A stretch of DNA of 64,000 bases from Patescibacteria group bacterium. GTDB lineage: Bacteria; Patescibacteriota; Saccharimonadia; Saccharimonadales; 2-12-FULL-41-12. The stretch is taken from positions 187,004 to 251,003 of the forward strand of contig JBBTSC010000001.1 in assembly GCA_038064875.1 (NCBI GenBank), given 5' to 3'. The notes under the pieces are model-generated. The model made no database searches, was not told the origin of the DNA, and saw nothing but the letters and a program-made list of their open reading frames with translations. Below are positions 1-63,154 of this stretch, one piece after another. How positions within the stretch are numbered: the first letter of the stretch is position 1; every line of letters starts with the position of its first letter. A program made the position numbers and the translations under genes.

Positions 1-804
1 GAGGCCAAGTTACAGGTAGAAGACATCACCAAGATTGTAGCAAGAGATCTGCCAGAATTTGACTTTCTGTTGGCTGGGTTCCCCTGCCAAGCGTTCTCGA
101 TAGCTGGCTATAGGCAAGGATTTAAGGACGAGAAAGGTCGAGGTAACCTCTTTTTCGACATAGCGCGGATTTTAGAAGTCCGCCAGCCCGAAGGCTTTTT
201 GCTAGAGAACGTAAAGAATCTAAAGACCCATGACGGGGGCAACACCTACAAAGTTATAGAAAAGACCCTAAATGACCTGGGCTACACCGTCCGCACAAAG
301 GTGCTTAACAGTATGGAATACGGCAACGTCCCGCAAAACAGAGAGAGAATATATATCGTAGGGTTCAAAGACCATGCCAAGACCGAGGCTTTTGAGTTCC
401 CTGCACCTACCAAATTGACCAAGTCAGTTGTAGATATTTTAGAAAAAGATGTTGACGCCAAATACTACTACACTGGCAAGCCACTGCATCAAAAACTAGT
501 AGATGATGTTACGGAGCTTGGCGCTGTCTATCAGTGGCGCCGTAAATACGTGCGCAAGAACAAAAAAGGTGTCTGCCCTACTCTGACTGCAAATATGGGG
601 ATGGGTGGTCACAACGTGCCGATTATCTTTGACGGCAAAGGTATCCGCAAGCTAACCCCGCGTGAATGTGCCCGATTGCAAGGATACCCGGATACTTACA
701 TTTTGCCAGATCTTGCAGACTCTACACTCTACAAACAGCTAGGTAACTCAGTGACAGTGCCGGTACTAGAGCGGATAGCAAAGAACATGCAGGTAGTTTT
801 GTAG
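1..804 (+). CDS. DNA (cytosine-5)-methyltransferase, N-terminus cut by window edge
   Basis: Frame 1 is open from nt 1, so the listed TTG at 70 is internal. C5-MTase motifs appear in order: GFPCQAFS (IV), LLENVKNL (VI), QNRERIYIVG (VIII), RKLTPRECARLQGYPD (IX), GNSVTVPV (X). Confidence 0.9.
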   Translation, partial: EAKLQVEDITKIVARDLPEFDFLLAGFPCQAFSIAGYRQGFKDEKGRGNLFFDIARILEVRQPEGFLLENVKNLKTHDGGNTYKVIEKTLNDLGYTVRTKVLNSMEYGNVPQNRERIYIVGFKDHAKTEAFEFPAPTKLTKSVVDILEKDVDAKYYYTGKPLHQKLVDDVTELGAVYQWRRKYVRKNKKGVCPTLTANMGMGGHNVPIIFDGKGIRKLTPRECARLQGYPDTYILPDLADSTLYKQLGNSVTVPVLERIAKNMQVVL

Positions 805-809
805 TATCT

Positions 810-1370
810 CTACCAGACCTGGACGTTGGTAGCTAGTGGCTTGATACCATGCTCTTTTGCAAGTTCTTTGATACTGAGTCGTGGACGTCTTTTGCCTGTT
901 TGTTGGTCTGTTAGAGCCTCTTTGCTGTTGACCTTTGCCTCATATAGCAAGTTGTTGGGTATCTTGTATACAGAGAACCTGCCGTCTAGCTTGCCATCGT
1001 TATAAAAGTCCATGAAATACAGGTCATCCCACTTAGATTTGGGGCCAAATGACGTCACATCTTTTTTGATACTAGTAGCCTTTATCTGCTCCGCCCTGCT
1101 GGTTGTAGAGTTAAAGGTATCGAACGATGTGTTAGATAGCTTGTATGCCTTAAGTAGCCTGGAAGACCCTGACCACATGCAAAAGGCAATCTCTGATAGT
1201 CCTTCTGGGAAGTTAGGCGCACGGCTTTCGTAATCGTTCAGGCTGACTTTTAGAGTGCGCCAGTGGTCAAATATCTCTTTCCACTTTTTTCTATCAGACT
1301 TATCAAAGTCCGCCAAAGTCAGTGTGCAATCTTCCCCAAAAACAGTAGCTTGTATCTTCCTAGTTTTCAT
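810..1370 (-). CDS. putative type II restriction endonuclease, partner of the C5-MTase (family not certain, possibly Bsp6I-like)
   Basis: 186-aa ORF convergent with the MTase, with stops 5 nt apart. Size and layout are typical of a type II R-M pair. No catalytic motif could be assigned with certainty by eye. Confidence 0.45.
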   Translation of the reverse strand: MKTRKIQATVFGEDCTLTLADFDKSDRKKWKEIFDHWRTLKVSLNDYESRAPNFPEGLSEIAFCMWSGSSRLLKAYKLSNTSFDTFNSTTSRAEQIKATSIKKDVTSFGPKSKWDDLYFMDFYNDGKLDGRFSVYKIPNNLLYEAKVNSKEALTDQQTGKRRPRLSIKELAKEHGIKPLATNVQVW

Positions 1371-16174: not shown

Positions 16175-17305
16175 TTATATCAGTTTTGTTAGCTCAATAT
16201 AGCTAATAATTTGAGTCGCAACCATTACGGATATTACAGCTACAAGTAAGACAATGGCGCTAGACCGTGCAAACGGATTTTTAGGAAATACCGTGAACCA
16301 CTGCTGAAGTAGCATAGCCAGCCCATTAATACTCATAATAATAATCCCAGATAGTATCACGAAGTAAAGACCTACAACTCCTGATACTGTCGCTATAAAT
16401 GCTCCTATACAGATAGTAGGTATGATTTTCTGTTGGATTGAGCTAAATCCTTGAATATACATGTACGTAGACAGGGCTGCTAAGATCAAAAGAGCAACGC
16501 TAATGAGTGGAAGTTTTTCGTTAGTTGCCAGATCGTAGTCGATCAATAATTTTTTGATTACTTCTTTGAGTGAGCTAAAGACAGTGCTAAGTTCTGTATT
16601 TGCATCACTAATTTTACCAACCAACCAGCCGTAGTCGTTTCTTTTGAATGTGTAAAAAGAAGCTAGACATATAGTGACTATCGATGGAAGGATCAAATAG
16701 GTTTTTTTAAGTTTTCCGATATGTTTAAAGAGCGTCCGCAGTCGGTTTTTTGACAAAATAATGCCAATAGTCAACATCAGCCAAAAATATGGAACTGACA
16801 TTAGTATCCCAAGAGTAAGCCCAAGTAAAAAGAAGTTGGTAGCGCTATGTTTTGGGTGAAGCCAAGAGCACAACAAAATTATTATAGGTAATGCAACCAG
16901 TGAGAGAAGGCTAAAATCCATTCCTCCGACAGCAAGAAGTATGTAGGCTTGAGCCATGGCTATCATACTTGATAGTGTGGCTACTCTTGTAGAATATTTC
17001 TCTTTGGCGATTATATAGATGGATACACCTAGCACAGCAACAATTGCTGAAAACACTAGATGATAGAAAATGCCTCTTGGGGTAACGTGGCTTAACCCTA
17101 AAATAACCGTTTTTAGACTTATATATTCAGAGCCACCGTGGTATATCTGGTTGACAAAAGAATCAGGTGTCATGACTTGTCTAATATTGATGTGGTCAAA
17201 ATGCCAGGTAAAAGCCGTAATACCAAGCCACGTCGCCAGCCAGGCAGAAAATTTATTGGCTACAACCTTTTTCCAAATAGTTGAGATGTTCACTTTTTTG
17301 ATCAT
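16175..17305 (-). CDS. polytopic membrane protein of unknown function
   Basis: Many hydrophobic helices. The ORF-track start (17398) lies inside the palindromic repeat. ATG 17305 (MIKKVNIST...) sits 10 nt after an extended -10 box and is preferred. Confidence 0.6.
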   Translation of the reverse strand: MIKKVNISTIWKKVVANKFSAWLATWLGITAFTWHFDHINIRQVMTPDSFVNQIYHGGSEYISLKTVILGLSHVTPRGIFYHLVFSAIVAVLGVSIYIIAKEKYSTRVATLSSMIAMAQAYILLAVGGMDFSLLSLVALPIIILLCSWLHPKHSATNFFLLGLTLGILMSVPYFWLMLTIGIILSKNRLRTLFKHIGKLKKTYLILPSIVTICLASFYTFKRNDYGWLVGKISDANTELSTVFSSLKEVIKKLLIDYDLATNEKLPLISVALLILAALSTYMYIQGFSSIQQKIIPTICIGAFIATVSGVVGLYFVILSGIIIMSINGLAMLLQQWFTVFPKNPFARSSAIVLLVAVISVMVATQIISYIELTKLI

Positions 17306-17315
17306 TGATAAGATG

Positions 17316-17324
17316 ATTATATCA
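17316..17324 (-). promoter_or_regulatory. extended -10 promoter element (TGATATAAT)
   Basis: Minus strand reads G-TG-A-TATAAT (17324-17316). It directly abuts the repeat end (17326) and lies 10 nt upstream of ATG 17305. Confidence 0.45.
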
Positions 17325-17325
17325 C

Positions 17326-17489
17326 TAACCCTGTTACCAAATAAGCCCTGCGAGGTCAAACGTGATGATTTTAGTTCAAAACTGGCAAATTGAGACAAAT
17401 CATACTAACGTTATGATGCGGAGCAGTTTGGTGGGCTTTGGACAAAAAGGGCGCGTTTGGAGCCGTAGGATTATTTGGTAATAGGGTTA
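17326..17489. repeat. 164-bp palindromic intergenic element, copy 1 (19-bp terminal inverted repeats)
   Basis: TAACCCTGTTACCAAATAA (17326-17344) pairs with TTATTTGGTAATAGGGTTA (17471-17489): 18 Watson-Crick pairs plus 1 G-T. The whole unit aligns to the reverse complement of 27438-27603. Confidence 0.7.
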
Positions 17490-18848
17490 TTGTTGATCGA
17501 AAGGAGTTGTGTGTTTTGAATCGAGGCTTCGGAATCTTTGCTTTGTGATATCAAAGTAGAGTTCTATATTGCCAGTAGGGCCATTTCGATGCTTCTTTAT
17601 CAAGATATCAGTTATGTGTTTTCGGTCTGTATCTGGCTTGTAGAACTCTTCTCGATATATAAAGGCTACGACATCAGCATCTTGTTCAATTGATCCTGAT
17701 TCACGAAGGTCAGCAAGTTGAGGGATCTGCGGTGAACGGTTTTCAACCATACGACTCAGCTGGCTTAGTGCGATGACTGGTACATTGAGCTCCCTGGCAA
17801 TACCTTTTAGCCCACGAGAAATCTCAGTGATCTCCTGAACCCTGTTTGACGGATTATTGGCAAACTTACTGCTACCGCTCATCAGCTGAAGGTAGTCAAC
17901 GATTATCAGACCAATCGGTTGATTATGCATCTCACGCCTTGCTTTGGTGCGCATTTCACTTACCGAAATACTCGGGGTATCATCTATCAAAATTGGCTCT
18001 TCGCTCAAAGTTCCCATAGCATGACCAATTTTTTCAAAATCTTGGTCACTCATATTTCCTGTTCGAATATTCCATGCATCAACACCAGCTTCAGCTGCCA
18101 AGAGACGGTCAACAAGTTGTTCTTTGCTCATTTCCAGACTAAATATGAGTACTGGTTCTTTGGTTTTTTTAGCTACATTATGGGCTAAATTAAGTGACAA
18201 GGCGGTCTTTCCCATACTCGGCCGGGCAGCAATGATGATCAAATCACTTTTTTGGAACCCTGCTAAAACGCCGTCTAAGTCTTTGAAGCCTGTTGTAAGG
18301 CCACGTACACCGCCTTTGTCTTTGTGGAGCTCATCAAGTCGCTCAAAACTGTCGTTCAGGATCTGTTCCAGAGAAATAATGCTGTTTTTAACGTGCTTAT
18401 CGCTGACATTGAAGAGCTTGGTTTCTGCAGATTCAATAAGATCTCCAATATTTGTCTGTTCATTGAATCCATAGTCAGTGATCTCTTTACTGGTACTTAT
18501 GAGCTTACGTCGCATTGATTTGTCATTGACTATTTCTGCGTATTTAACAACGTGGGCTGCAGTAGGAACAAAATTTGTTAGCTCGTTTATATATTCTGAT
18601 CCGCCGATACTGTCAAGTAACCCTTCTGATCTTAAGACGTCACTAAGAGTCAAGACATCTATAACACCGCGATTTTCATAGATTTTTCGAATACATCGGT
18701 AAATATGTGCATGTTTTGCGTCAAAAAAGTCAGATTCATCAATAATATCGGCTACTTTGATAATAGCATCTGTATCGATGAGGATTGCACCTAGTAGGCT
18801 GGCTTCAGCTTCCAGGTTCTGGGGTAATGACTTCTTTGAATCGTCCAT
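17487..18848 (-). CDS. dnaB: replicative DNA helicase DnaB
   Basis: Walker A ARPSMGKT, plus the IVDYLQLM and SGSIEQDAD motifs. Confidence 0.95.
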   Translation of the reverse strand: MDDSKKSLPQNLEAEASLLGAILIDTDAIIKVADIIDESDFFDAKHAHIYRCIRKIYENRGVIDVLTLSDVLRSEGLLDSIGGSEYINELTNFVPTAAHVVKYAEIVNDKSMRRKLISTSKEITDYGFNEQTNIGDLIESAETKLFNVSDKHVKNSIISLEQILNDSFERLDELHKDKGGVRGLTTGFKDLDGVLAGFQKSDLIIIAARPSMGKTALSLNLAHNVAKKTKEPVLIFSLEMSKEQLVDRLLAAEAGVDAWNIRTGNMSDQDFEKIGHAMGTLSEEPILIDDTPSISVSEMRTKARREMHNQPIGLIIVDYLQLMSGSSKFANNPSNRVQEITEISRGLKGIARELNVPVIALSQLSRMVENRSPQIPQLADLRESGSIEQDADVVAFIYREEFYKPDTDRKHITDILIKKHRNGPTGNIELYFDITKQRFRSLDSKHTTPFDQQ

Positions 18849-22933: not shown

Positions 22934-23494
22934 TTAGTTGTCGTCGGGAATTATCTCAATAATTTTCCTATCTGCAGGCTTGATACCACCCCACATGAGT
23001 ATATGTTTTTTCTCTTTCTCCATTTTCATTTTATAAAATGGCTTTTGATGAAACTTACGTCTTATAGCAAAAGCAGAGACAGCTAACAAAGAGGCTACTG
23101 CAAATCCTACCCCACTCCCAAAAGCAACATCAGCGATAGTGTCAAAAGTAGCTTTCTTTGGTGTAGCTCCATCAAGATACCCTGCTTTGCACACTGCTAC
23201 GACGCCATGAGCTTCCGGAGTATCATCTACACAGGCTTCAAATCCTTCATACGCTAACCCTATTACAAAACAACTGGCGGTGGCTAGCCCGGCAGAAACA
23301 GCAGGTAGCTTCCTCTTAAATGTATCTGCGTAAAGCGCGATACCAGCACCTATTACTGCATTAGGTACTACATGTTTGCCTATATCAAGTTCAACGTTTC
23401 CTTGAGCATCCTTAGGGTTCACCGCATCAATATCAGGTGCATGTTTAAATAAATCTGTTAGCTGATTTGCAAACTGTACAGCCTCATACTTCAT
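22934..23494 (-). CDS. hypothetical membrane protein
   Basis: 186 aa with 3-4 hydrophobic helices (AVIGAGIALYA, AGLATASCFVIGLAY, GSGVGFAVASLLAVSAFAI). No known motif. Confidence 0.55.
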   Translation of the reverse strand: MKYEAVQFANQLTDLFKHAPDIDAVNPKDAQGNVELDIGKHVVPNAVIGAGIALYADTFKRKLPAVSAGLATASCFVIGLAYEGFEACVDDTPEAHGVVAVCKAGYLDGATPKKATFDTIADVAFGSGVGFAVASLLAVSAFAIRRKFHQKPFYKMKMEKEKKHILMWGGIKPADRKIIEIIPDDN

Positions 23495-27382: not shown

Positions 27383-27437
27383 AATTACTATATATTCTAT
27401 CTGTTTGCAGGGGTTGTTAGCAAAGTAATTCTTACAA

Positions 27438-27603
27438 TAACCCTGTCACCAAATAACATCCCGGCTTCAAACACGCCATTTTTGTCCAAAATCAAACAAA
27501 CTGTTTCGCTAGCGTAACTTTGGTTACGCCTTGTCGCAGTTTGTTAGTTTTGATCAAAAAATCATCATGTTAGACCACGGAAGCTTATTTGGCAACAGGG
27601 TTA
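27438..27603. repeat. 166-bp palindromic intergenic element, copy 2 (inverted relative to copy 1)
   Basis: TAACCCTGTCACCAAATAA (27438-27456) pairs with TTATTTGGCAACAGGGTTA (27585-27603), 17/19 positions. Internal pairs are CAAACAAACTG/CAGTTTGTT and apical GCGTAAC-TTTG-GTTACGC. It aligns end to end with the reverse complement of 17326-17489. Confidence 0.7.
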
Positions 27604-27612
27604 GGCTTGAGT

Positions 27613-28599
27613 TTAGATTTCTGAAGAAATAATTCTTACAGACGGCCCCATAGTAGTAGTTAAATAGATCGAACGTACATATACGCCTTTTACACTACTT
27701 GGTTTGTTGCTTTTGATACTTTCAAAAACTGCAGAAACGTTCTGGTTCAATTTGTCAGCACCAAAACTTACTTTTCCGAAAGCTAGGTGTACTATACCTG
27801 TAGAATCTACTCTGTACTCTACACGACCAGCCTTAGCTTCTGTCACAGCTTTTACAATGTCATTTGTAACAGTACCGCTCTTTGGGTTTGGCATAAGGCC
27901 CTTAGGCCCAAGTAATTTAGCAAATTTGGCAAGCTTTTGCATCATATTCGGTGTTGCAATCAATATATCAAAGTCAATTTCTTCTTTTGCAAGCTTGTTA
28001 GTAACAGCTTCCTCGCCAATCAAGTCCGCTTCAATCTTGCCTGCTTTTTCAAGTGCAGCATCATCAGCAAATACAGCAATCTTTAGAGTTTTACCGGTAC
28101 CTGCTGGCAAGACAATACTATCTCGGATGTTTTGGTCAGCGTGCTTAGGGTCAACACCTAAACGCACATGAAGCTCAGCTGTTGAGTCAAATTTTTTGCC
28201 AGCCGTTGCTATAAGTAAATCAACAGCTTCTTTAAGACTGTACTCTTTATTTTTATCAATCAACTTAACTGCCTCTTTGTAGGCTTTTCCTCTTCGTTCA
28301 ACTCTTGGCCGAGCAGGCTTAACAACCTTTTTAGGCTTTGGTTTATCTTCAGTATCAGAAGAAGTTTTACGTTCTTCTTTGGCAAGTTTTTCTTCTGTTT
28401 CAGCAATAGCCTTGGCGCTTCTTTTGCCTGATTTTGCTACCGTTTTTTCAGCATCTAGCTCTGTGGCCACGTCTGCTTTTTTATCTTCTTTACCTGCAGA
28501 TTTAATTGCAGTTGTTATCTCTGCAACTGTATTCTTTGCTGTAACCTCTAGACCTAGCTTTTTAGCTTCTTCTAGTAATTCTGGTTTAGTTTTTGCCAT
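27613..28599 (-). CDS. rplA: 50S ribosomal protein L1 with a ~100-aa N-terminal extension
   Basis: The C-terminal ~230 aa is L1 (DPKHADQNIRDSIVLPAGTGK...GPKGLMPNPKSGTV). The N-terminus is a Lys/Glu-rich tail beginning PELLEEAKKLGLEV (helix-extension-helix-like). Confidence 0.95.
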   Translation of the reverse strand: MAKTKPELLEEAKKLGLEVTAKNTVAEITTAIKSAGKEDKKADVATELDAEKTVAKSGKRSAKAIAETEEKLAKEERKTSSDTEDKPKPKKVVKPARPRVERRGKAYKEAVKLIDKNKEYSLKEAVDLLIATAGKKFDSTAELHVRLGVDPKHADQNIRDSIVLPAGTGKTLKIAVFADDAALEKAGKIEADLIGEEAVTNKLAKEEIDFDILIATPNMMQKLAKFAKLLGPKGLMPNPKSGTVTNDIVKAVTEAKAGRVEYRVDSTGIVHLAFGKVSFGADKLNQNVSAVFESIKSNKPSSVKGVYVRSIYLTTTMGPSVRIISSEI

Positions 28600-56760: not shown

Positions 56761-57516
56761 TTAAACTTGGATTCTATCTAATAAAGCATGTTCGGCAACT
56801 GAACTAGGGGCATAGTGCTCCGCCATATGTTTCATAAACCTAGCTTGTGGGCTGTCTGCTCCAACATTATCAACAAACTCAGCTAACTTTGAAGGATTCT
56901 CAAGTAATCCAAAAATTTTTACAACTGCAATAACACGCACTAGATTAATATCTATTCCATCATTATCAGCCTGTTCTTCTCTTAGCTGATTTGTCAGATC
57001 TTTAACGATCTCTGGTTCAATTAAAGGCTGAATCCCTACTGCATTCATTCCAAACGCAACGGCTCCGATTCCCTTTATATCTGGAAAACGAGGATCTGTG
57101 ATTGACTTAGTTGGCTTATTGGTTATTTGAACCGAACTCACTCTTTCTGCAATGTCATCCTGAACTCCTGGATTAGCGCTGTGATGATCCGCCATATGTT
57201 TCATAAACCTAGCTTGTGGGCTGTCTACCCCTACGAGTTCTATGTATTCCTCAAGAGCACCTTCATCTTCTGTATTAATGAGATCAAAGACTAAAGATAG
57301 AGCCCAAGGACGTAACACATCGATTTCATTATCACTGGTGATAGCATCTTGACCATTATTACTATTTAAATCTTTCAGCTCATTAATAATCTCGGGGTCG
57401 ATGGGTGGCTGGACACCTGTATCATTCATTTTGCATGCTAATTCACCAAAGAATTGCCCAACAGGCAAAACTATCCGCGCTATTGTTTCTCCACGTATTT
57501 CAGATGTATCTCTCAT
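56761..57516 (-). CDS. hypothetical protein with two copies of a ~120-aa repeat domain (signature VG.DSPQARFMKHMAEH)
   Basis: 251 aa. Each half contains G(V/I)QP.I(D/E)PEI..(L)... and VG(V/A)DSPQARFMKHMA(D/E)H. It lies between rpsJ and rplC. Confidence 0.6.
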   Translation of the reverse strand: MRDTSEIRGETIARIVLPVGQFFGELACKMNDTGVQPPIDPEIINELKDLNSNNGQDAITSDNEIDVLRPWALSLVFDLINTEDEGALEEYIELVGVDSPQARFMKHMADHHSANPGVQDDIAERVSSVQITNKPTKSITDPRFPDIKGIGAVAFGMNAVGIQPLIEPEIVKDLTNQLREEQADNDGIDINLVRVIAVVKIFGLLENPSKLAEFVDNVGADSPQARFMKHMAEHYAPSSVAEHALLDRIQV

Positions 57517-57524
57517 AATGCTCT

Positions 57525-57974
57525 CTACTGCGCAGGTAGTGGTTCTATTGTATTAGTACTGAGATTTATCTGCGCTCGCATTCCGCTTGTTTGACTCGAA
57601 CTTACTCTTTTAGCAATTTCTTCTTGAGCCTTTGGGCCTGCGCTATGATGCTCTGCCATGTGTCGCATAAATCGTGCCTGTGGACTGTCTATGCCAACAC
57701 TCTGAGTATACTCGCCTAACACGTCGGCTTTCTCAATGAGTTTAAATACTAGTGAAAGTGACTGAGCTCGCAGTGCGTCAATCTCAGATACGGGGACTCT
57801 CTGAGTACTGTTCGCAGTTGCGTCTTTGAGTCCGGTGATGACGTCCGGGTCTATCGGGGGCTGGATGCCACTCGCATTCATTTTACATGCTAACGCACCG
57901 AGGCCTTGTTCGGTAGGCATTCCCATCCGCGCTAACTCAATAGCTTCTGCAGTTATTTCAGGTGTATTTGTCAT
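57525..57974 (-). CDS. hypothetical protein, single-domain paralog of the 251-aa repeat protein
   Basis: 149 aa: GALACKMNASGIQPPIDPDVITGLKD...VGIDSPQARFMRHMAEHHSAGPKAQEEIAKRVSS. Confidence 0.6.
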   Translation of the reverse strand: MTNTPEITAEAIELARMGMPTEQGLGALACKMNASGIQPPIDPDVITGLKDATANSTQRVPVSEIDALRAQSLSLVFKLIEKADVLGEYTQSVGIDSPQARFMRHMAEHHSAGPKAQEEIAKRVSSSQTSGMRAQINLSTNTIEPLPAQ

Positions 57975-58357: not shown

Positions 58358-58465
58358 AAAATTTCTCCTTTTCGTGCTCTAACGTGTACATCCGTTAACA
58401 TTTATTTAATTGTCCATATACTCTACCAGATAAAGCACAAAAAGAAAAGAGTAAGGTTATTAAAG

Positions 58466-58596
58466 CTGACAGATAATTTCAGGATTGCAGTGCAGAGTAA
58501 AAACAGAGCACTAAAAAAGAGCTGTACGCGAGGTACTGCTCTTTTTTATGTCGCAGGTTTTTGCCTGCAATGTTCCCTGAGAATTATCTGTCAAGG
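58466..58596. repeat. ~130-bp compound palindrome in the tuf-rpsJ spacer, enclosing the tuf terminator
   Basis: Outer arms CTGACAGATAATTTCAGGATTGCAG (58466-58490) and CTGCAATGTTCCCTGAGAATTATCTGTCAAG (58565-58595) pair over about 24 bp with small bulges. Confidence 0.55.
58513..58547. terminator. bidirectional rho-independent terminator (tuf terminator on the minus strand)
   Basis: AAAAAAGAGCTGTAC-GCGAG-GTACTGCTCTTTTTT: a GC-rich stem flanked by an A-run and a T-run. Confidence 0.7.
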
Positions 58597-59781
58597 TTAT
58601 TTGTTGATTTTGGTAACAACACCAGCACCAACAGTACGGCCACCTTCACGGATAGCGAAGCGTAGACCTTGCTCCATAGCAATAGCTGATTGAAGTTTTA
58701 CCTTAAAGGTGATTGTGTCACCAGGCATAACCATTTCTTTGTCAGCTGGAAGTTCAACTTCACCAGTTACATCTGTAGTTCGGAAATAGAACTGAGGTTT
58801 GTAACCCTTGAAGAATGGAGTGTGACGTCCACCCTCTTCTTTAGTTAGAACATATACTTCAGCATCAAACTCTGTGTGTGGAGTGATAGTTCCTGGTTTT
58901 GCAAGAACTTGACCACGCTCAATTTGTTCACGCTCGATACCACGAAGGAGTACACCAACGTTATCACCAGCTTGACCTTGGTCAAGAAGCTTTTTGAACA
59001 TTTCGACACCCGTAACGACGCTCTTTTGAGTATCTTTAATACCGACGATTTCAACTTCTTCGTTGATCTTTACGATACCTGCTTCAACACGGCCTGTAGC
59101 AACAGTACCACGACCCTTGATTGAGAAAACATCTTCAATAGGCATTAGGAATGGCTTGTCTAAGTCACGCTTTGGCTCTGGAATGTATTCATCCATAGCT
59201 TTAACGAGTTCCATAACAGCGTTCATGTTCTCTTCATCGCCTTCAATAGCTTTTGTAGCAGAACCTTTGATAATAGGACAGTTTTCGTCAAATTCGTACT
59301 TAGCAAGAAGCTCACGAATATCCATCTCAACTAGTTCGACTAGTTCAGGATCAGCAAGGTCCATCTTGTTCATAAATACAAGAATACTTGGGACACCAAC
59401 TTGTTTTGCAAGAAGCACGTGTTCACGAGTCTGAGGCATAGGGCCATCAGCAGCAGATACAACAAGTACGGCACCGTCAATTTGAGCAGCACCAGTAATC
59501 ATGTTCTTAACGTAGTCAGCGTGTCCTGGCATGTCCACGTGGGCGTAGTGACGCTTTTCTGATTCGTATTCTTGGTGAGAAGTAGCGATAGTAATACCGC
59601 GAGCTTTCTCTTCTGGAGCGTTGTCGATTTGGTCGTAGTTAACGGCCTTGTTGACAGCACTTGGTAGTTTTTTTGATAGAGTCATTGTGATAGCAGCAGT
59701 AAGAGAAGTCTTACCGTGGTCCACGTGACCCATAGTTCCCACGTTAACGTGAGGTTTGCTTCGATCAAATTGATCAGCCAT
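58597..59781 (-). CDS. tuf: elongation factor Tu
   Basis: [28 protein letters not shown]. Confidence 0.98.
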
Positions 59782-62439: not shown

Positions 62440-62667
62440 TTAGTTAGCTCCAGTTCCTATGCCTGTTAATATTTGTGTTTCGTCTTGTTCAAGTACAACT
62501 TGCTGATCTGCAAATGGCGCTTCGGAGTCAGGAGATGGAAAGCCAAGCCACTTTGCAGAAAGCCTGCCTAGTCTCTGAAATGGTCCATTTGCCTGTTGGT
62601 CATCAAGAACGGTGGTTTCATTGGAACCAGTAAAAAGTAGTACGTCTGTGATTTCTTTAATAGCCAT
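62440..62667 (-). CDS. hypothetical 75-aa protein inserted between rpsG and fusA
   Basis: ATG 62667 lies 7 nt after the rpsG TAG. Its TAA (62442-62440) abuts the fusA ATG (TAAATG). The frame fills the spacer. No known motif. Confidence 0.5.
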   Translation of the reverse strand: MAIKEITDVLLFTGSNETTVLDDQQANGPFQRLGRLSAKWLGFPSPDSEAPFADQQVVLEQDETQILTGIGTGAN

Positions 62668-62674
62668 AATATCT

Positions 62675-63154
62675 CTAAGTCCTTGCAAAGTGAGCAAAGG
62701 CACGGTTAGCCTCAGCCATTTTATGAGTGTCTTCTTTTTTCTTTACAGCTGTTCCAGTGTTGTTATAAGCATCGACGAGCTCAAGAGCGATTCGATCTTC
62801 CATACTCATCCCAGATCGAGACCTGGCAGCCGCTACAAACCACATGAGAGTCAAGTGCGTTTGTCTCTGACCTTTTACTTCAAACGGGATTTGATAGTTA
62901 GCGCCCCCAACACGTCGTGAACGAGTCTCAACACTTGGACGAACATTACCCATAGCCTGCTCAAAAACTTCTAAAGGATTGTCGACTTTTAACTTTTTAG
63001 CTGCTTTTTCCATACCACCGTAGACTAATTTTTCAGCAATTTGCTTTTTACCGTCTAGCATTACACGGTTAATAAACCGTTGTACAAGTACACTGTTATA
63101 TTGACGGTCAGCCGGAATATCACGAACTAAACTTTTTGTAACTTTTCTTGGCAT
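62675..63154 (-). CDS. rpsG: 30S ribosomal protein S7
   Basis: [37 protein letters not shown]. Confidence 0.97.
   Translation of the reverse strand: MPRKVTKSLVRDIPADRQYNSVLVQRFINRVMLDGKKQIAEKLVYGGMEKAAKKLKVDNPLEVFEQAMGNVRPSVETRSRRVGGANYQIPFEVKGQRQTHLTLMWFVAAARSRSGMSMEDRIALELVDAYNNTGTAVKKKEDTHKMAEANRAFAHFART

Follow-up and report, generated by a model that had tools for sequence, protein, structure and literature searches.

Bacterial MITEs are elements of 100-200 bp with terminal inverted repeats and 5'-TA-3' termini, and their transcripts form long stem-loops (PMC2229807). ERIC/IRU (127 bp, enterobacteria), RUP (107 bp, S. pneumoniae) and Correia/NEMIS (Neisseria) are compared here as reviewed in that article. 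RUP and Correia elements are present in approximately 100 or more copies, RUP has a cognate insertion sequence, IS630-Spn1, and some Correia elements bring a promoter or an IHF site. YPAL/RU-2 of Yersinia (168 bp) is palindromic, lies beside gene ends and occupies sites that are filled or empty in close relatives; it is without TA termini, contains internal inverted repeats and has target duplications of 3-26 bp (PMC2229807). The bcr1 element of the Bacillus cereus group (~155 bp) undergoes compensatory changes that keep its folded structure (PMC3184786). IS630/Tc1-mariner elements as a rule target TA, and an ISY100 mini-transposon that retains only 30 bp of each end is no less efficient in transposition than the complete element (PMC2170065). 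In a full-text search of the literature, we found no paper describing MITEs in Saccharibacteria, CPR, Patescibacteria or TM7.

Here we describe an element of approximately 165 bp that occurs twice in the window, by which we mean the whole 64,000-nt stretch of DNA that was analyzed. The genes of the window are those of Saccharibacteria (Patescibacteria/CPR) from groundwater metagenomes. Exact protein matches were found on Hainich aquifer contigs and in MAG GCA_964349495.1, which has a contig 97.5% identical to the window, and a close named relative is Candidatus Saccharibacteria RIFCSPHIGHO2_12_FULL_41_12, the DnaB of which is 92% identical. Like ERIC, RUP and Correia, the element measures 100-200 bp, has terminal inverted repeats with 5'-TA-3' at both ends, occurs in either orientation, is intergenic and adjoins or overlaps gene ends, has stop codons in nearly every frame, and has a predicted transcript that forms one long stem-loop by pairing of its 5' and 3' ends. 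This likeness is one of description; no similarity to a known family appeared in Rfam, plasmid or phage searches, and the host differs in being a member of the reduced-genome Saccharibacteria. The copy number appears low compared with RUP and Correia, no counterpart of IS630-Spn1 was found for the element, and it provides neither the promoter nor the IHF site of some Correia elements. The element shares with bcr1 a similar length, a non-conserved distribution among relatives and compensatory changes; however, bcr1 has 5-bp direct-repeat flanks and known transcription, whereas the present element has TA flanks and is known from sequence alone. It is nearly equal in length to YPAL and shares its palindromic nature, its location beside gene ends and its filled and empty sites, but differs from it in termini, internal repeats and target duplications. 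TA on both sides and inverted termini of ~19-24 bp are also features of IS630/Tc1-mariner elements such as ISY100 (PMC2170065), from which it differs in that neither a transposase nor a full-length relative was found among window ORFs or in exact-terminus scans, and in that a clean TA duplication could not be demonstrated at the empty sites. The element class appears to be an ordinary one, a bacterial MITE of ERIC, RUP or bcr1 type, and we think it somewhat probable that the element is non-autonomous, MITE-like mobile DNA belonging to a clade of groundwater Saccharibacteria.

Copy 1 (164 bp, positions 17326-17489) has its better-folding strand, referred to below as the A strand, on the plus strand, while the A strand of copy 2 (166 bp, 27438-27603) is the minus strand. 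A covariance model, R1, built from the copies scored them at 153 and 185 bits, respectively. The left terminal inverted repeat of copy 1, TAACCCTGTTACCAAATAA (17326-17344, plus strand; inverted repeat I9), and the right one, TTATTTGGTAATAGGGTTA (17471-17489, plus strand), pair over 19 bp with one G-T pair, as the initial annotation had read them; the outer TA may be a target duplication or part of the repeat. In copy 2, the corresponding repeats are TAACCCTGTCACCAAATAA (27438-27456, plus strand) and a second one at 27585-27603 (plus strand; reverse complement TAACCCTGTTGCCAAATAA), and both copies are indeed bounded by TA. The termini of these copies are TAACCCTGTTRCCAAATAA-like, and within three elements the 19-bp termini show 0-1 mismatch. 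With up to 3 mismatches allowed, the terminus pattern occurred five times in the window, against 0.01 occurrences expected by chance. Four of the five mark the termini of copy 1 and copy 2. The remaining match, at 23255, has 3 mismatches, lies inside a large ORF on the other strand and is without a partner, and is probably a chance match. A search of the window with nhmmer returned only the two copies (E values of 5e-53 and 9e-55; next best, 0.8), and neither nhmmer nor the covariance model detected a third family copy there.

Copy 1 aligned end to end with the reverse complement of copy 2, with 127 of 167 columns identical (76%), in agreement with the by-eye estimate of roughly three-quarters. 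Identities per 20-column bin were 19, 13, 16, 13, 14, 15, 17 and 13. The center, which had been described as diverged, is therefore more diverged, but only slightly, with no bin below 13 of 20. Since identity is spread over all of the bins, the likeness between the copies is not confined to the 19-bp ends; such confinement had been named as an outcome that would refute the proposal. The element is 164-166 bp long and self-complementary from end to end, and stop codons break nearly every one of its frames. A lone 50-codon open frame in copy 1 does not stay open in the other copies, and the 50-aa product had no match among 1.8 billion proteins. Taken together, the data support a unit that is repeated and non-coding, has inverted termini ending in TA and behaves as an insertion, as originally proposed.

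Copy 1 lies at the end of the dnaB gene, and its last three bases, TTA (17487-17489), are the TAA stop codon of dnaB on the minus strand. At its other end, the element provides the first 24 codons of an over-long ORF, 16175-17398 (407 aa, minus strand). We found that this N-terminal extension (17306-17398, minus strand, of which ~24 codons are element-derived) is spurious. Public gene calls and the orthologues at empty sites all agree on ATG 17305-17303 as the true start of a 376-aa protein, the start that had been considered more plausible. The extended -10 box of this downstream membrane-protein gene, TGATATAAT (17324-17316, minus strand), does not belong to the element and is located one base past the terminus of copy 1 and 10 nt before ATG 17305. 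Adjacency to a promoter had been regarded as a trait of the element itself, a suggestion that we abandoned, because the empty sites, without exception, also have TGnTATAAT 7-10 nt ahead of the start codon. Judged by this comparison, the TGATATAAT box is ancestral and not supplied by the element. The same spacing of TGnTATAAT, 7-10 nt before the start of the 376-aa gene (17303-17324 in the window, minus strand), is kept at the orthologous sites of L098-L105. The closeness of this conserved box to the start codon suggests that the mRNA of the membrane-protein gene may be leaderless or nearly so.

Copy 2 is placed between the rplA stop codon (27613-27615) and the promoter and start codon (27382) of dcd. 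On its dcd side is a promoter-like site that reads TTGCTA-18-TAGAAT in the window and TTGCGT-18-TAGAAT in a related lineage. Both copies are thus in the sole slot where an insertion disrupts nothing, after a stop codon and before the next promoter. Two further observations concern the rplA gene. Its product, ribosomal protein L1 (27613-28599, 328 aa), carries a Lys/Ala/Glu-rich N-terminal extension of ~100 residues, and a segment of ~100-250 nt within the gene (near 27843-28089) could not be aligned with strain L001, which is 97.5% identical to the window.

Comparison of filled and empty sites bears directly on how the element came to be at these positions. Six contigs from five lineages (L104, L105, L098/L099, L100 and L102), with DnaB proteins 82% to nearly 100% identical, were compared at the site of copy 1. 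The gene order dnaX-dnaB-376-aa gene-ybaB-recR is kept in all six, and the site is empty in every one of them; the spacer from dnaB to the next gene is 19-41 nt in these contigs versus 181 nt in the window. The closest relative at this site, L104 (~84% DNA identity), reads ...TTCGACCAA TAA TGATATAATCATCATATTA ATG, and its BLAST alignment to the window is interrupted at 17327 and 17489, which are the ends of the element. Similarly, the rplA-dcd site of copy 2 is empty in L116, L117, L118 and L120, and the spacer is 64 nt in L117, L118 and L120 versus 230 nt in the window. In the empty-site lineage (Dcd 92% identical, ~75% DNA identity), this spacer reads TAA AAATCCAAG TTGTAAGAATTAC..., and the alignment on the dcd side breaks exactly at 27437/27438. 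Within the species to which the window belongs, every contig (98-100% identical) has both copies. Because these contigs are all filled and the sites of relatives are empty, the comparison shows that copy 1 and copy 2 were inserted after the species split from its nearest sampled relatives and are now in every sampled strain. Copy 1 is identical across 11 strain contigs. We rejected this constancy as a sign of constraint, since the adjoining 600 nt of dnaB contain merely 7 variable sites.

All four elements identified in this study are flanked by TA. At the empty site of L104 there is a single TA at the junction (CAA TAA TGA), and the filled site of copy 1 has an extra CAA codon. The DnaB proteins encoded beside the element end in ...PFDQQ, while those of the empty-site relatives end in ...PFDQ (...PFD in L102); a one-codon duplication of CAA directly beside copy 1 (17490-17495; DnaB of P0001-P0011 compared) is therefore seen in element-bearing DnaB only. 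The filled site of copy 2 has 4 extra nt relative to the sole relative available for this comparison, which has no TA at the junction and is too diverged to reveal the ancestral state. Because of the extra CAA at copy 1 and the 4-nt difference and TA-less relative at copy 2, a clean 2-bp TA duplication is not demonstrable. Excision of copy 1 from the sequence, with TA taken as the duplicated target, leaves ...CAACAA TAG TGATATAAT... If TA was duplicated, copy 1 would have entered the TA of a TAG stop codon, and the first A of the element would have remade the stop as TAA. Both L098 and L099 have TAG as the stop codon at the dnaB site.

To look for copies elsewhere, an exact-terminus scan was made of 185,579 species-representative (GTDB) genomes. 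The 33 loci that it returned are close in number to the chance expectation. A single one among them, L039:4126-4290 (the same as L121:10364-10528), had two inverted terminus matches 165 bp apart. This third copy, in a different Saccharibacteria MAG, shares 78-79% identity with each of the window copies. Upstream of it is a vapC (PIN) gene, the stop codon of which is the terminal TAA of the element; outside the element, nothing at this locus matches the window. Excised as for copy 1, it leaves a protein ending in ...KKYYY*, two codons longer than the present one. The other terminus matches were rejected by nhmmer, and two of the loci considered as copies, L018 and L036 (both Patescibacteria), were read by eye as coding-sequence coincidences. 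Exact-terminus scans of the JGI metagenomes and IMG/VR, which would miss diverged termini, yielded no true copies, only single matches at the level of chance. No copies were found in ~120 kb from related lineages or in the ~9 kb added on each side of the window, and plasmid and phage collections contained nothing relevant to the element.

The covariance model revealed a fourth, divergent element in the same MAG as the L039 copy, at L121:17004-17167 on the minus strand, in the rpsO-pnp spacer. It scored 45.7 bits with R1, compared with a best background score of 19.4 bits in 640 kb of unrelated loci. It is 164 nt long and has termini, TAGCCATTTCAATACAAAATAA...GGCTA (TAGCC...GGCTA), unlike those of the main family, with which it shares a GATGA block and an apex of the form GCGTAxCC..GxTACG. 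The divergent element is located 47 nt upstream of the pnp start. The leader of E. coli pnp carries a hairpin that is cleaved by RNase III, and by analogy the position of the divergent element before pnp may matter. In the same spacer, beside this element, GAAATTCGAAATTC repeats are found twice (L121:16870-16965). With the four elements counted, copy density in the DNA covered is low, at 2 in ~82 kb of the window's genome and 2 in 20 kb of the L039/L121 genome. These data contradict the possibility, raised in the initial annotation, that only two copies exist and that both are at conserved orthologous positions: more copies exist, at unrelated loci of another genome, and both window sites are empty in relatives.

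Assemblies tend to break at the palindrome of the element, with three contig starts and one contig end falling within copies. L109, L111 and L113 begin inside copy 2, and L122 ends inside the L039 copy, after which Illumina adapter sequence follows. We rejected these breaks as a sign of high copy number, since a long palindrome may by itself interrupt assembly.

Every copy is predicted to fold end to end into one hairpin, with z values of -5.7 to -12.5 relative to shuffled controls. The A strand and the other strand gave folding energies of -70.1 and -47.6 kcal/mol for copy 1 (A, plus strand), -69.8 and -57.7 kcal/mol for copy 2 (A, minus strand), -78.2 and -60.2 kcal/mol for L039:4126-4290, and -76.5 and -46.4 kcal/mol for L121:17004-17167 (A, minus strand). 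The same element-intrinsic strand therefore folds better in four of four elements, by 12-30 kcal/mol. This advantage comes from wobble pairs, G:T pairs outnumbering A:C mismatches on the A strand by 9:3 in copy 1, 5:1 in copy 2 and 8:4 in the L039 copy. For the analysis of covariation, three independent copies and one strain variant were used. Standard pairs occupied 97% of pair cells, and 10 of 63 pairs were changed on both sides among the three independent copies, a number reached by none of 500 column shuffles. When the 3' partner was slid by 1-3 columns, pairing fell to 35-51%. The divergent element formed 57 of the 63 model pairs, with 27 changed on both sides, at 44% identity in an alignment that was fitted to the structure. 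Compensatory changes thus preserve the hairpin. Covarying stems had been listed beforehand as favoring a structured RNA over a mobile element; the stems do covary, and in this element covariation and mobility coexist.

These properties raise the question of whether the element is a mobile structured-RNA module, in which an RNA hairpin (or strand-specific ssDNA hairpin) of set polarity is what matters and the inverted termini are secondary. The element would then persist because its hairpin has a function, which may be that of a signal for processing or stability, of antisense RNA or of an RNA that binds protein. The covarying stems, the strand that folds far better in all four elements and the excess of G:T over A:C on it all speak for such a module, as does the retention of the 164-166 nt length, the GATGA block and the apex while termini differ between subfamilies. 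However, the flanking genes are read in the same sense as the A strand at just two of the four loci, and it is therefore not obvious that selection acts through the mRNA of the upstream gene. Only four elements were sampled. Most wobble pairs recur from copy to copy, and they may descend from one ancestor rather than reflect repeated selection. A conserved internal promoter is also lacking, as the TTGAGA-16-TATGAT match within copy 1 is absent from the other copies. A search of Rfam 15 gave no match at the gathering score or at E values up to 10; the best sub-threshold match, to MIR447 at 18.8 bits versus a gathering score of 200, was a generic long-hairpin match. Moreover, related lineages manage without the element at both window sites. 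We therefore regard an RNA module as unlikely, though it is the strongest competitor of the MITE reading. A kink-turn reading of the conserved GATGA loop was dropped, because this segment is mostly paired in the divergent element.

A related and slightly less likely proposition is that, in these reduced CPR genomes, the conserved unit that is selected or recognized is not the termini but the hairpin, which is fixed in length, apex and polarity. Between subfamilies, the termini differ while the length, GATGA block and apex are kept, which is the reverse of the usual MITE pattern and counts against the MITE reading. If this proposition were true, the element would spread via recognition of a single-stranded hairpin, or persist through an RNA function, and its mechanism or function would be distinct from that of classical DDE-mobilized MITEs.

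Movement of the element as a single-stranded DNA hairpin, by means of an HUH/Y1-type enzyme (the kind used by IS200/IS605 derivatives and REP/RAYT) or a similar structure-recognizing enzyme, would also account for a whole unit that forms one hairpin with a strand bias, since G:T pairs are tolerated in DNA hairpins too. It is consistent with structure being kept while sequence turns over, with termini that are not conserved between subfamilies and with the lack of a demonstrable clean target duplication. We nevertheless consider it improbable: the perfect 19-bp, TA-ended inverted termini are typical of DDE elements and not of IS200/IS605 ends, no tetra- or pentanucleotide is common to the flanks of the four elements on either side (nothing beyond TA), and no Y1/RAYT gene was present among the window ORFs checked.

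Origin in situ, behind dnaB and rplA, of a vertically inherited cis-regulatory or terminator hairpin would fit the location of both window copies directly after stop codons and before the next promoter, and their presence in all sampled strains of the species, but is very improbable, being contradicted by the empty sites in relatives with the same gene order, by the occurrence of the 165-bp sequence at unrelated loci and in another genome, and by the fact that no terminator-like site overlaps either copy. No intrinsic terminator was predicted to overlap copy 1 or copy 2; the one terminator-like site near copy 1 (17536-17561, plus strand) does not lie within the element and is on the other strand from dnaB, and there was none around copy 2. 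Two other identities were rejected. The core sites of integron attC sites have the form GTTRRRY/RYYYAAC, which the termini of the element do not fit, and a retron or ωRNA was discarded because no reverse transcriptase or TnpB was found among the neighboring genes and there was no Rfam match.

We return, then, to the MITE-like element as the reading that we favor. The comparisons of copies and of filled with empty sites establish that the element is a repeat and that it was inserted; how it moved is a matter of inference from its ends and flanks. The element would have been moved in trans, by a transposase coded elsewhere in the genome or by an insertion sequence that has since been lost. We infer that TA was duplicated and that the likeliest mover would be a cut-and-paste DDE enzyme targeting TA, of the IS630/Tc1-mariner-like type. 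No transposase domain was detected in 20 window ORFs scanned against Pfam or in the annotated genes of the window, and exact-match scans of the 185,579 species-representative genomes, JGI metagenomes and IMG/VR returned no insertion sequence with the termini of the element. Judged by its position and predicted folding, the element may be transcribed with the upstream gene, forming a 165-nt hairpin at the 3' end of the transcript. Such a hairpin could cause read-through to pause or stop, shield the 3' end or give a site for a double-strand-specific RNase. Selection acting on the line of copies from which new ones arose may have maintained the pairing, which would explain both the compensatory changes and the strand-specific G:U pairs.

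Some other features of the window were recorded in the course of this analysis. The tuf-rpsJ spacer (58461-58599) contains a 139-nt near-perfect hairpin that begins with TAACCTTGACAGATAATT on the minus strand, where the first TAA within it terminates tuf. A terminator-like A6-stem-T6 hairpin, identical when read in either direction, forms the apex (~58510-58548). This hairpin folds at -62.9 (plus strand) and -54.8 kcal/mol (minus strand) and is present in all same-species contigs; it scored 18 bits with R1, the noise level for the 165-bp family. The gap of ~235 nt between rpsG and fusA (62440-62703), in which some gene callers place an ORF of 75-87 aa and others nothing, did not match the hairpin family either. 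Between rpsJ and rplC, three direct repeats of 67 nt (56799-57698), 67-82% identical and separated by 369 and 464 nt, lie within the adjacent ORFs 56761-57516 and 57525-57974, which have no Pfam match. Near the start of the window (70-1370), a C5 cytosine DNA methylase gene, cut by the window edge, is next to a gene for a Bsp6I-like restriction endonuclease, and the two constitute a type II restriction-modification pair.

The element accounts for an over-long ORF call, a stop codon supplied by a repeat, and contig breaks in these genomes. It indicates that compact Saccharibacteria genomes, with spacers of 19-40 nt, still acquire mobile DNA, and that the only place in which insertions persist is behind a stop codon and ahead of the promoter that follows. 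The pattern of filled and empty sites could be of help in telling closely related groundwater populations apart. If the strand-specific, covarying hairpin is functional, it would represent a tractable mobile RNA structure in CPR bacteria.
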